From Escherichia phage PBECO4, in sequence record KC295538: 64,000 bases of DNA; one strand, given 5' to 3'. Below are positions 42,786-45,225 of this stretch, piece after piece. The notes beneath the pieces were generated by a model that was given only the letters and a program-made list of their open reading frames with translations, did not search any database and was not told the DNA's origin. Positions within the stretch are counted from its first letter, which is position 1. Each line of letters opens with the position of its first letter. The translations under genes and the position numbers were made by a program.

Positions 42786-43157
42786 TTATGACATACGCTT
42801 ATTATGAATGGAATTATGAATGGATTTTAAATAATTATATAATTTTATCAATCCACTACCAGTAGCTACAAACAGTAGTGCTGTTGGTATCATACATCCA
42901 AACATGGTTATTAATTCATGTATTTCCATACCATCACTATTTGGTCCCACATCAAATATAACAACCAAAACAACACCTAAAATGCTTAGACAATAATATC
43001 CCATAAAGACCATAAAAGTGATATATCCGGCACTTGATTTAATATTACATAACATATTATACACTGGATTAATACAGAAGAAGTATAATAACCATACCAG
43101 TGTTCCAGTACTGAACATAATAATTGAAATAATGGAAAATATCTCACGGTAACTCAT
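42786..43157 (-). CDS. small integral membrane protein, family C paralog
   Basis: Hydrophobic multi-pass profile; seven tandem similar ORFs 42786..45225. Confidence 0.55.
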   Translation of the reverse strand: MSYREIFSIISIIMFSTGTLVWLLYFFCINPVYNMLCNIKSSAGYITFMVFMGYYCLSILGVVLVVIFDVGPNSDGMEIHELITMFGCMIPTALLFVATGSGLIKLYNYLKSIHNSIHNKRMS

Positions 43158-43158
43158 A

Positions 43159-43521
43159 TTATTTCCTCATACCCAAACGTTGGTGGATTTCAGAGATCTT
43201 TATATACAATAGTACCACAAGGTGCAGTACTAAACAACATATAATTACGGCTAATACCAATGAACATATCATAAGACCAAAGGTTATTGTATTCAAAGAG
43301 GATGTGAACAGTCCAATTATTAATACAATAAAACCAAAATTGAATACTGTACCCAACACAGTATATGCTGGACTATATCTCTTTTGGATTACATCATATA
43401 TATTTGATAATGGTCGCTTATGGAAGTACTTCCCAATGCACACGAATGCATTCAGTGAGAAGATAAATGTATACGCCATTACTAGTAATTGACCAACGAA
43501 AGATAATTCTATCCCGTTCAT
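43159..43521 (-). CDS. small integral membrane protein, family C paralog
   Basis: Track ORF 43159..43584 trimmed to MNGIELSFVGQLLV.. Confidence 0.5.
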   Translation of the reverse strand: MNGIELSFVGQLLVMAYTFIFSLNAFVCIGKYFHKRPLSNIYDVIQKRYSPAYTVLGTVFNFGFIVLIIGLFTSSLNTITFGLMICSLVLAVIICCLVLHLVVLLYIKISEIHQRLGMRK

Positions 43522-43522
43522 A

Positions 43523-43891
43523 CTAACCTCGTTTACGTTTTTTAATTGTACTGTGCATCTTTTCGAAATAGGGAACCAAAACATATTGAACAGTTTGCCA
43601 GATAACCATTAGATTATGCACTGCACCACCAAGGATACCAAACACTAGAACAATAATTGCCATAATAGGATCACCGTCTACCATACCCCATTTAAAGATA
43701 TGTAAAATCCAAGCAATGACTAGACAAAATAAACTAAGCCAATACGTAATGAAAAATCCGGCTTGTAATTCATAATCATCAGCAATTTCATCGTATACCG
43801 TTTCTAAAAATGATACACAAAAGAATTTACCAATTATAACCACAGTACTAATAAACAGCATAGCAGTTAAGATAATAAGAGCAATTTCCAT
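43523..43891 (-). CDS. small integral membrane protein, family C paralog
   Basis: Hydrophobic; basic tail KKRKRG. Confidence 0.55.
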   Translation of the reverse strand: MEIALIILTAMLFISTVVIIGKFFCVSFLETVYDEIADDYELQAGFFITYWLSLFCLVIAWILHIFKWGMVDGDPIMAIIVLVFGILGGAVHNLMVIWQTVQYVLVPYFEKMHSTIKKRKRG

Positions 43892-44205
43892 TACATCCCT
43901 CGTTTACGCTTTTGATTGCGTCTAAATTCTGTTAGTCTACGGCTAATCGGCGGCATCAGACTACATAAAAAAGTAACAGTTGTTGGTAGTAACATCAAGT
44001 CAATCATTGCAGTGTTATTTGGTGGATCAAACACCAAAAAATACACACAAGAAACACTAATAATGGTTGAACCGATAAAAGGAATACAAAATTCTTTTAT
44101 CTGTTTTTCAACATAATCAAACATCTTGAGTACAAATAAAAATCCAACCCAACACATAATGAAATAGAATGAATACAACGTGTAAATCAATGTTACTATA
44201 TCCAT
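43891..44205 (-). CDS. small integral membrane protein, family C paralog
   Basis: Hydrophobic; basic tail RRNQKRKRGM. Confidence 0.55.
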   Translation of the reverse strand: MDIVTLIYTLYSFYFIMCWVGFLFVLKMFDYVEKQIKEFCIPFIGSTIISVSCVYFLVFDPPNNTAMIDLMLLPTTVTFLCSLMPPISRRLTEFRRNQKRKRGM

Positions 44206-44543
44206 TAGTACCTCGCATCAGGAACTTTAGCACGTAACTTATGAACGACTGGGAACAACAACAAACTTACATATGCAATAGTTGAACCCCAATAGAATAC
44301 TAATACAATTGGTTCACCATTAGAACGGAAACCTCTACTAATCATTGAGTAGTGAATAATAGGCATAATCATCGCCATACCAAACCATGCGTGTAATTTT
44401 AATTGCAGCATGTTATCAGCGATGAATACTGAAATTGGTCGTTTAAAGAACCACATCAGAAAGTAGAATCCAGCACTAATAATATAGTACATGGTACTAA
44501 CTTTCATATACCACGGCAGTAAATCAATAAAGTACTCCATCAT
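44205..44543 (-). CDS. small integral membrane protein, family C paralog
   Basis: Hydrophobic; tail ..LRAKVPDARY. Confidence 0.55.
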   Translation of the reverse strand: MMEYFIDLLPWYMKVSTMYYIISAGFYFLMWFFKRPISVFIADNMLQLKLHAWFGMAMIMPIIHYSMISRGFRSNGEPIVLVFYWGSTIAYVSLLLFPVVHKLRAKVPDARY

Positions 44544-44887
44544 TCCTCCGGTATCTTGTTTCGAAGTTCAATCATAACACAACATAGTTTAATGAACAAG
44601 TAAAAAACTACACATATCATACCCAATGTACCGTAAACTGCGGAAAATGCGGGTAGTACCTTTCCTGTGAGTGTTGCCACAATACATGCCATCAATGTTG
44701 ATGCAAACATCGATTGATTAATGACAGAATTCATAAAATCTTCACCTTTACGTTTATAGAATTGTCTTTTAAAATACCATCCTAGAAACATAACTACCCA
44801 AAATGTTACATAAGTTGTTAAAATAATCCCTGCAAGTGAATGTGCAACTGGACTACTCCTTAAAAACTCAAGATAAGCTTCAAACAT
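44540..44887 (-). CDS. small integral membrane protein, family C paralog
   Basis: Hydrophobic; tail ..LRNKIPEE. Confidence 0.55.
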   Translation of the reverse strand: MFEAYLEFLRSSPVAHSLAGIILTTYVTFWVVMFLGWYFKRQFYKRKGEDFMNSVINQSMFASTLMACIVATLTGKVLPAFSAVYGTLGMICVVFYLFIKLCCVMIELRNKIPEE

Positions 44888-45225
44888 TAGAAGTCTCCGC
44901 GAATTTTATCTCTACCATGAATAATGAGATGGATTAAGTATACACCTAACCAAATGAACAACCCCAAGAATACAATATATTGTGAGATTGAGTTCAAGTG
45001 AGGATTAGCACAATAAATTAAGTGTGCCATAAGACCAACAATTGCAAACAAACCTTGAACAAGTGTGTAAAGAATTAGTGATGAATTCCTTACTGGATAC
45101 AGTTTAAAAACAATTTTCTTTTTAAAATACCATAGTACTACAACTAGTGCATGATAAAAGAAAAAACCAAAAAGATAAATCAAAGTAATACTAATCATTG
45201 TATCTGATTTAAAAAATTCTAACAT
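44887..45225 (-). CDS. small integral membrane protein, family C paralog
   Basis: Hydrophobic; tail ..GRDKIRGDF. Confidence 0.55.
   Translation of the reverse strand: MLEFFKSDTMISITLIYLFGFFFYHALVVVLWYFKKKIVFKLYPVRNSSLILYTLVQGLFAIVGLMAHLIYCANPHLNSISQYIVFLGLFIWLGVYLIHLIIHGRDKIRGDF

Follow-up and report, generated by a model that had tools for sequence, protein, structure and literature searches.

The seven contiguous open reading frames (ORFs) at positions 42786-45225 of a 64,000-nucleotide stretch of Escherichia phage PBECO4 (sequence record KC295538; hereafter the window) form a minus-strand array, here called array A (A1-A7), and profile comparisons place their products, together with those of three ORFs some 6 kb away (B1-B3), in one superfamily of small membrane proteins with two clades and a common, predicted three-helix topology. 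As judged from database searches this superfamily is confined to RaK2-like phages, and genome comparisons indicate that array A is exchanged as a whole hypervariable cassette between otherwise near-identical phages. The membrane-protein family is undescribed in the literature found; the array is not mentioned in papers on phAPEC6, fEgEco12, Sharanji, RaK2 and CBB, in a comparative analysis of jumbo phages or in a 2026 review.

RaK2-like jumbo phages are in therapy development against E. coli and Klebsiella, and more than 80% of their genes are unannotated. A recombining hypervariable array is a candidate for deciding the outcome of co-infection or of host defence among near-identical jumbo phages of this kind. 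The PHROGs database keeps the window proteins, as full-length members (E 1e-53 to 1e-70), in seven separate families of 'unknown function' (19454, 19046, 27396, 33258, 26405, 27618 and 19285), A6 giving only a weak match, whereas here the seven are merged into one superfamily of two clades for which topology, motifs and a conserved genomic address are defined. The window belongs to an Asteriusvirus, a jumbo coliphage of the RaK2-like kind. The region of 3.4 kb is 95-99% identical to Asteriusvirus genomes that include phAPEC6, 121Q, G17, Sharanji and Salmonella phage SD-15_S21; these relatives are RaK2-like jumbo myoviruses with genomes of ~350 kb.

One superfamily of small membrane proteins

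An earlier, sequence-only reading of the window had described seven back-to-back, hydrophobic, multi-pass ORFs of 104-141 amino acids (aa) with short basic or charged C-terminal tails, and three further ORFs with similar tails at 50950-51985. The contiguity on the minus strand, the hydrophobic character, the tails (present on all seven array ORFs, as quoted) and the three further ORFs were all borne out, as was the lower end of the size range, but the upper end was not. The 141-aa ORF (43159-43584) overlaps the upstream gene A5 by 62 nucleotides (nt), and it contains an internal ATG at 43521 with GAGG 7 nt upstream, from which the product would be 120 aa. Because this Shine-Dalgarno (SD) site and the vB_Ec-M-J record, in which A6 starts at the same ATG, agree, the 141-aa call is most likely too long and 43521 the start. 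The ATGs at 51637 and 51294 are most likely the starts of B2 and B3, and with starts corrected the ten proteins measure 104-123 aa. The genes are listed below with their predicted transmembrane (TM) helices.

44887..45225, minus strand: A1, 112 aa, three TM helices, clade I, tail ..GRDKIRGDF; phrog_19454; ratio of nonsynonymous to synonymous substitution rates (dN/dS) 0.24
44540..44887, minus strand: A2, 115 aa, three TM helices, clade I, hub of the similarity network, tail ..LRNKIPEE; phrog_19046
44205..44543, minus strand: A3, 112 aa, clade I, TM1 and TM2 the least hydrophobic, tail ..LRAKVPDARY; phrog_27396
43891..44205, minus strand: A4, 104 aa, three TM helices, clade I, tail ..NQKRKRGM; phrog_33258
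43523..43891, minus strand: A5, 122 aa, three TM helices, clade II, motif IGKFFCV, tail ..IKKRKRG; phrog_26405
43159..43521, minus strand: A6, 120 aa (corrected start), three TM helices, clade II, tail ..HQRLGMRK
42786..43157, minus strand: A7, 123 aa, three TM helices, clade II, last gene of the array, tail ..IHNKRMS; phrog_27618
51647..51985, minus strand: B1, 112 aa, three TM helices, clade I, tail ..RSNIPEK; phrog_19285
51296..51637, minus strand: B2, 113 aa (ATG start), three TM helices, clade I, tail ..RDNLPER; phrog_19285
50950..51294, minus strand: B3, 114 aa (ATG start), three TM helices, clade I, tail ..RKNMPNR

The annotation of A6 is inconsistent, being 141 aa (43159-43584) in some database entries and missing from phAPEC6, whose record leaves both A6 and B1 unannotated (loci L009, 3204-3568, and L022, 993-1342).

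Pairwise BLAST among the window proteins is near noise, with 10-25% identity. When orthologs were gathered from vB_Ec-M-J, phage A4 (a phage name, distinct from gene A4), JNE01 and Klebsiella phage Muenster, composition-corrected BLAST sorted the proteins cleanly by position into ortholog groups, A1 to A7 and B, with a few cross-links between the groups A1-A2, A2-A3, A2-B, A1-B and A5-A6. Profiles of the ortholog groups were then aligned with hhalign, using column-reversed profiles as a control for composition and hydrophobicity. Many real pairs score 25-68, nearly all of them collinear over ~100 columns, while the reversed controls score 7-21. The highest values were obtained for B1-B2 (68), A2-A3 (65) and A1-B3 (51), followed by A2-B1 (42), A2-A4 (41), A5-A6 (39), A5-A7 (36.5), A1-A2 (31), A6-A7 (27), A2-A6 (27) and A3-A5 (25). 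Clade I (A1-A4 and B) and clade II (A5-A7), each pooled, match one another at 95.8% probability (E 7.8e-9, score 49), against scores of 12.8 and 13.7 for the reversed controls.

A leave-one-orthogroup-out test with hidden Markov models (HMMs) gave a similar picture, in that nearly all left-out members beat every decoy, most of them with 12-45 bits, where the decoys (259 other ORFs of the window and all reversed sequences) reach at most 9.9 bits. The exceptions within the decoy range are window A3 (7.8 bits), MJ_A3 (9.8) and JN_a4 (6.2), whose orthogroup mates score 10-31 bits (A3 orthologs 10-27). Within the window the family HMM matches just A1-A7 and B1-B3, ten sequences that were in its training alignment, and none of the window ORFs outside these ten scores. 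The ten align over their full length and share two motifs, F-[K/C] at the cytoplasmic end of TM1 (for example WYFKR or IGKFFCV) and a C-terminal [LF]-[RH]-x-[KR]-[IL] tail. The alignment that had been proposed as a check of the family is therefore full-length and, for nearly every member, above the reversed controls in the profile tests, and on these comparisons we treat the seven array proteins and B1-B3 as one superfamily of two clades with ten members in the window.

A third related set had been placed at 59668-61120, which would have brought the family to thirteen. We rejected these minus-strand ORFs, C1-C3 (59668-60045, 125 aa; 60494-60820, 108 aa; 60878-61120, 80 aa), since they give control-level scores against every family profile and the motifs are missing, and the total in the window stays at ten. 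C2 and C3 match other PHROGs of unknown function and C1 matches none; by profile tests C1-C3 are also mutually unrelated, and an ORF for a secreted protein lies among them.

The tails required a closer look. At the family junctions of the window the gaps all lie between -4 and +9 nt (7/8 within -4 to +1 nt), and at seven of the eight the SD site of the next gene lies inside the last codons of the upstream gene, the remaining one, at B1/B2, being just past the B1 stop codon. Over seven arrays a GGAG, GAGG or AGGA core falls within the last codons of the upstream gene at 37 of 44 junctions, and 31 of 44 have gaps of -4 to +3 nt, compared with 30% tight junctions among the other same-strand junctions of the window. 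Coupling is thus enriched in the arrays, though not unique to them. We treat array A as a polycistronic operon and set B as a second compact one. The residues RG, EE, ER and GD recur in the tails because the SD site of the next gene is encoded there, whereas the positive charge is a feature of the protein, since the last gene of each array keeps a basic tail. The matching tails, which had been taken as a sign of kinship, are accordingly real, but their likeness is in part a matter of DNA, namely of the next gene's ribosome-binding site.

With regard to topology, each of A1-A7 and B1-B3 has three Kyte-Doolittle hydrophobic peaks, those of A3 being weak. Counts of lysine plus arginine over 46 members from five phage lineages are 21 for the N-terminus, 144 for loop 1, 24 for loop 2 and 213 for the C-terminal tail, and with the positive-inside rule this distribution predicts a periplasmic N-terminus and a cytoplasmic C-terminus. 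We thus predict a single three-helix, N-out/C-in inner-membrane layout for all ten, and the topology check suggested earlier likewise returned one common layout for the members. The GenBank record of Klebsiella phage Muenster carries the TMHMM note '3 TMDs; N-out, C-in' for 5/8 array genes; two of the others are noted as N-in/C-out and one has 2 TMDs. Clusters A and B and the ORFs at 59668-61120 account for all multi-pass coding-strand ORFs of the window. An AlphaFold2 model of A2 is all-helical (mean predicted local distance difference test score 71, predicted template modelling score 0.43), and a Foldseek search with it against BFVD and PDB gave no match with E<1; hairpins of three membrane helices match non-specifically in fold searches.

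Scans of the window proteins and the 46 members with Pfam, NCBIfam and PADLOC gave no consistent family, the matches being scattered, sub-threshold and to unrelated membrane proteins. PADLOC models have no match to A1-A7 and B1 at E<=0.1. For the 46 members at E<=1, Imm_superinfect is not among the best 25 of 37 Pfam families listed, and no holin family (Pfam Phage_holin_* or NCBIfam) is among the matches listed.

Age, distribution and exchange of the array

Directly upstream of the array is a gene that serves as a reference in what follows.

45291..46061, minus strand: AAA-type P-loop ATPase, 256 aa; Pfam AAA, phrog_1250; upstream of the array

Compared with vB_Ec-M-J, dN/dS is 0.10-0.39 for all ten family genes, and their dN exceeds that of the neighbouring ATPase gene by a factor of 2-15. 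These values mark all ten as real, constrained coding genes under purifying selection. It could be argued that the ORFs are non-functional or mis-called, given an AT-rich region (GC 0.30-0.35) in which T-rich codons encode hydrophobic residues. However, this explanation is at odds with the dN/dS values, with cross-genus orthologs at 29-40% identity that have the same length and topology, with the conservation of SD sites and coupling, and with motifs that are conserved in 45 database clusters; we give it next to no credence and regard artefactual ORFs as effectively refuted.

In Klebsiella phages, orthologs of A1, A2, A3, A4, A5 and A7 occur at about 29-38% identity and in nearly the same order, and such positional orthologs across genera imply that the duplications are older than the split between Asteriusvirus and Alcyoneusvirus. 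The idea of a recent expansion is contradicted by this, as it is by the low identity (10-25%) of the paralogs. The number of genes in the array does vary. It is seven in the window and in phage A4, eight in JNE01 (with A4 duplicated), eight in RaK2 and Muenster (with A2 duplicated, A6 absent and one extra gene), eight in the metagenome contig L008, ten in Erwinia phage Hallingskeid, six in EJP2 and 3-4 in three further contigs. In the distant arrays clade I genes precede clade II genes and B-like members are included, and in L008 and Hallingskeid the B-like members stand within the main array; this suggests that the B set of the window is a displaced offshoot of the main array, 6 kb away.

A 42-aa ORF occurs at or near the array head, between the ATPase gene and the later members, in Alcyoneusvirus, Hallingskeid, EJP2 and a metagenome contig; the coordinates of the array-head ORFs are 2529-2971 in L003, 4715-4843 in L008, 3317-3445 in L010 and 3889-4017 in L011. 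RaK2 and Muenster also have a 104-aa non-membrane ORF at the array head, and both the 42-aa and the 104-aa ORFs are absent from the lineage of the window. In the Salmonella phage records SD-15_S21 and SD-6_S16 (L020 and L021), compared with window positions 42000-46200, there are many deletions of 30-550 nt, falling inside A2, A6 and the conserved ATPase gene, and the two genomes are 25-40 kb shorter than those of relatives. The deletions may be assembly artefacts. A2 and A6 look truncated there (P0026, P0027), which would speak for dispensability, but the records were judged unreliable and were left unused.

An exhaustive HMMER profile search of 1.84 billion cluster representatives returned 45 family proteins, all of 89-128 aa, with essentially full-length matches and the same motifs; a word-indexed search had returned 27 clusters. 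Every database match with a named or examined source is a RaK2-like phage or a phage-like contig, and among these there are no bacterial or other-phage relatives that could lend a function. On this evidence we consider the superfamily to be confined to RaK2-like phages. Its genomic address is also conserved, the window and 12 related loci all having a tight array that follows the gene for the 256-aa AAA ATPase and converges with RCC1-repeat genes. When viral and metagenome contigs were scanned with the ATPase profile, only six additional loci were returned. One database representative that was looked up for context has the same synteny of ATPase, array and convergent RCC1 genes.

Between phages that are otherwise near-identical the arrays can differ strongly. 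Phage A4 (L002) and the window share 98% identity in the ATPase protein and 95% in the DNA as far as window position 45289; past this point identity collapses, and the array proteins are just 27-66% identical. The reverse is seen in contig L018 (OEQX01000005.1), where identity is 60% for the ATPase but 90-100% for A1-A7 and the 220-aa gene after them. The ATPase exists as two allelic types, ~60% identical, which reassort freely with the array types among phages that are otherwise 90-98% identical, and the identity break is the intergenic region between ATPase and array. We take this as exchange of the array as a whole hypervariable cassette between otherwise near-identical phages. Within the ortholog groups, divergence is uneven, TM1, loop 1 and the tail having 45-47% identity and TM2, loop 2 and TM3 26-36%. 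The proposal that the family has diversified against a variable target gains from these comparisons, as the array is a diversity hot spot between near-identical phages and this fits selection by a variable opponent.

The ATPase lies upstream of the array in every related phage examined and abuts the next gene in several lineages. We do not claim it as a specific functional partner of the array, because it recombines independently of it and because its homology is uninformative (phrog_1250, with just weak similarity to Cdc6, RFC and mS29).

Expression context and possible function

Four elements in the window bear on the transcription of the two sets.

45255..45283, minus strand: sigma70-type promoter-like site, TTGACA-17 nt-TACTAT, a consensus match in the 65-nt gap upstream of A1
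52307..52335, minus strand: sigma70-type promoter-like site, TTGACA-17 nt-TATTCT, upstream of the 93-aa gene that precedes B1
42756..42779, no strand assigned: perfect 10-bp hairpin directly after A7, followed by a T-run on the plus strand only
46098..46124, minus strand: PeSL-like terminator hairpin with sigma70 promoter, upstream of the ATPase gene; a unit starting here can read into the array

The gap upstream of A1 also carries an AGAGGA ribosome-binding site. The fourth element is one of seven near-invariant minus-strand copies of AAGGGTTGACTTCGGTCAGCCCTTTTT(GC)TATAAT in the window, where 0 are expected; they lie at 46098-46124, 47888-47914, 48812-48838, 53010-53036, 54099-54125, 55859-55885 and 59101-59127, that is, upstream of the ATPase gene and at six other intergenic sites between 46 and 59 kb. 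In the AAGGGTTGACTTCGGTCAGCCCTTTTT element the stem of a terminator-like hairpin contains the -35 box, and a T-run and then the -10 box come after the hairpin. No such element was found directly upstream of A1, where the promoter is a different one that lacks the PeSL hairpin.

This promoter-terminator architecture has been described for T4-type phages (PMC2839356, PMC4122927). As in the hyperplastic cassettes that PeSL elements bound in those phages, the present blocks consist of small, early-type genes, mostly of unknown function, that are shuffled as modules between close relatives, the same composite element occurs in seven copies, and identity breaks at the gap between ATPase and array. 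Unlike them, the present elements are in a RaK2-like and not a T4-like phage, and as the promoter of the A1 gap lacks the hairpin, PeSL-mediated exchange would at most be a candidate mechanism at that junction. AGTACT inverted repeats occur in three places, in the spacer of the A1 promoter (45262-45283), after A7 (42756-42779) and inside A6 (43210-43232), and may be a shared regulatory or recombination motif.

The T4-late-type motif TATAAATA has 2 copies in the window, against ~14 expected, both on the minus strand (55662-55669 and 56310-56317). They are just upstream of genes that match, in position and size, phAPEC6 gp035c and gp037c, which are virion proteins in the consulted part of Table 1 of the phAPEC6 proteome (PMC7247149), and this suggests T4-like late promoters in the RaK2-like phage of the window. 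A related hairpin at ~55680-55699, outside the seven copies above, has TATAAATA after it where those copies have a sigma70 -10 box. Near array A or set B the window scan gave no TATAAATA motif. In the consulted part of the phAPEC6 virion table (PMC7247149), which passes straight from gp010 to gp035c, the array orthologs gp012c-017c and the B orthologs gp028c-029c are absent, and a text search for gp012-gp017 likewise found nothing. The sigma70-type promoters, the lack of the late motif nearby and the absence from that part of the virion table together suggest that the array and the B set are early, non-structural inner-membrane proteins.

These data bear first on lysis timing, one of the roles that had been put forward. 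Class I holins such as lambda S are proteins of ~105-125 aa with three TM helices, an N-out/C-in orientation and a charged cytoplasmic C-terminal tail. The array proteins share this size, helix number, predicted orientation and tail, and may be holins, antiholins or related lysis-timing proteins. The endolysin of RaK2-like phages has an N-terminal TM domain (PMC5259590), and lysis control in these phages is in this respect atypical, which also favours such a role. However, unlike class I holins the array proteins have no dual-start motif, are multi-copy (seven to ten copies would be unprecedented) and have early-type promoters, with no T4-late-type motif near either array. The holin families are missing from the matches listed above, and no lysis gene is among the neighbours, the predicted endolysin of 121Q being gp532 and its array gp223-232. 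A role in lysis timing is thus disfavoured, and we think it highly unlikely.

Among known systems, T4 Imm and Sp are similar in kind, being small inner-membrane proteins of phages, encoded in plastic genome regions; early, non-structural expression from host-type promoters, which is presumed for both, would be a further likeness. The Pfam families listed for the 46 members show no sequence relationship to Imm, however, and Imm is a single gene as opposed to seven to ten three-helix paralogs in a coupled operon. T4 Imm is also smaller than the array proteins and has a different number of TM helices. We regard the present family as an undescribed variation on a familiar theme, that of small, presumably early membrane proteins which phages encode in plastic parts of their genomes.

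We tentatively favour the possibility that the family serves as an early module at the membrane, for superinfection exclusion or for counter-defence, while giving it somewhat less than an even chance; among the readings considered it fits best with the cassette behaviour, the accelerated divergence, the early context and the membrane location. Host sigma70 RNA polymerase would transcribe the operon right after infection, and the seven proteins would be made by coupled translation and then insert into the inner membrane. The N-terminus and loop 2 would face the periplasm, and loop 1, with its conserved F-K/C...Y motif, and the basic tail (L-[RH]-x-K-I) would face the cytoplasm. TM1 and the cytoplasmic elements could form a common scaffold, with specificity residing in the fast-evolving hairpin of TM2, loop 2 and TM3. 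The set would then act in conflict at the inner membrane, which is speculative, as are its two suggested roles: the more likely would be to block genome entry of secondary phages, in the functional sense of T4 Imm, and the alternative would be to neutralise membrane-acting host defences or toxins, with one target per paralog.

Several considerations weigh against superinfection exclusion or counter-defence. The promoters are identified by consensus alone. The paralogs are old and hold the same positions in different genera, whereas the genes of an exclusion battery in an arms race should come and go more often from lineage to lineage, and the retention of all positions with tight coupling fits a multi-subunit complex equally well. 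In the scans run, no known exclusion, immunity or defence protein matched the family in sequence or fold. The variability of the TM2-TM3 region may reflect weak constraint alone, and small hydrophobic proteins are easily missed by virion mass spectrometry.

Some of these points lead directly to the main rival explanation, in which the seven paralogs would be subunits of one hetero-oligomeric inner-membrane complex that serves the phage's own cycle, for example a platform, channel or anchor for replication, assembly or handling of the 350-kb genome, with coupled translation delivering the subunits together. Asteriusvirus and Alcyoneusvirus have orthologs for each position, largely in the same order, the clade I-then-clade II polarity is retained in more distant arrays, and all members are under purifying selection. 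The frequency of tight junctions (31/44) and embedded SD sites (37/44), relative to 30% tight junctions elsewhere in the window, is in keeping with a complex, whole-block exchange would keep co-adapted subunits together, and assembly could take place through the conserved motifs of TM1 and the cytoplasmic side. Yet relatives have anywhere between 3-4 and 10 copies, the Klebsiella phages lack A6, and some lineages have a second A2 or A4; nor would an essential machine normally be 35-75% different between phages whose flanks are 95-98% identical, and tight gene packing is common in the genome anyway. On balance we regard such a complex as conceivable but somewhat unlikely. If it were true, it would be a new kind of phage-made membrane machine. 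A bolder version, which we consider quite unlikely, combines the two ideas: the paralogs, made by coupled translation, would build a hetero-oligomeric machine in the inner membrane that only RaK2-like jumbo phages have, perhaps a gated pore or a ring that blocks entry, in which TM1 and the cytoplasmic motifs are the core and swapped TM2-TM3 hairpins re-tune the specificity of the whole complex at once.

The early context would also suit general host-takeover factors that alter the envelope (membrane potential, transporters, membrane proteases or cell division) and are not directed at competitors. The genes lie within a block of small early-type genes with sigma70 promoters, and a gene upstream of the B operon is annotated as a T7 gp0.7-like kinase in phAPEC6. 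In several members the TM helices retain polar residues (His, Glu, Asp), and A2 and A4 have weak matches to phrog_16874, a 'membrane protein' of the category 'moron, auxiliary metabolic gene and host takeover'. However, that category is an automatic label and the matches are weak (E 1.4e-5 and 0.02), and host targets of this kind vary very little from one E. coli strain to the next, so that the hypervariability of the cassette in near-identical coliphages would be left unexplained; we consider host takeover of this general kind unlikely. The kinase-annotated gene itself (52332-53006, minus strand, 224 aa; phAPEC6 gp031c, annotated as a T7 gp0.7-like protein kinase) heads the transcription unit of the B set, and a Pfam scan of it gave no match at E<=0.01.

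Neighbouring genes and other features of the window

On the plus strand, ~10 paralogous genes for proteins of 300-430 aa with RCC1 repeats (beta-propeller) occupy 29841-42100 and converge on the array. The phAPEC6 proteome has several of their orthologs (gp003-gp010) as virion-associated proteins. All relatives examined share the arrangement of ATPase gene, array and convergent RCC1 genes.

A second tandem paralog family is found at 25706-27108 and 28319-29756 on the minus strand, where fourteen tightly packed ORFs of 59-77 aa, many of them starting MN(K/T)EHKEFY, are related by BLAST at E<1e-3 in 16 of 91 pairs.

Small minus-strand ORFs with signal peptides are located at 18668-18967, 46237-46464, 53810-54061, 57426-57647, 59315-59665, 60056-60415 and 63541-63816, and one of them has a lipobox-like TAC motif. 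The ORFs at 59315-59665 and 60056-60415 are weakly paralogous to each other (E 2e-5; PHROG cross-hits). It is possible that the signal-peptide ORFs encode periplasmic or outer-membrane proteins belonging to the same early block.

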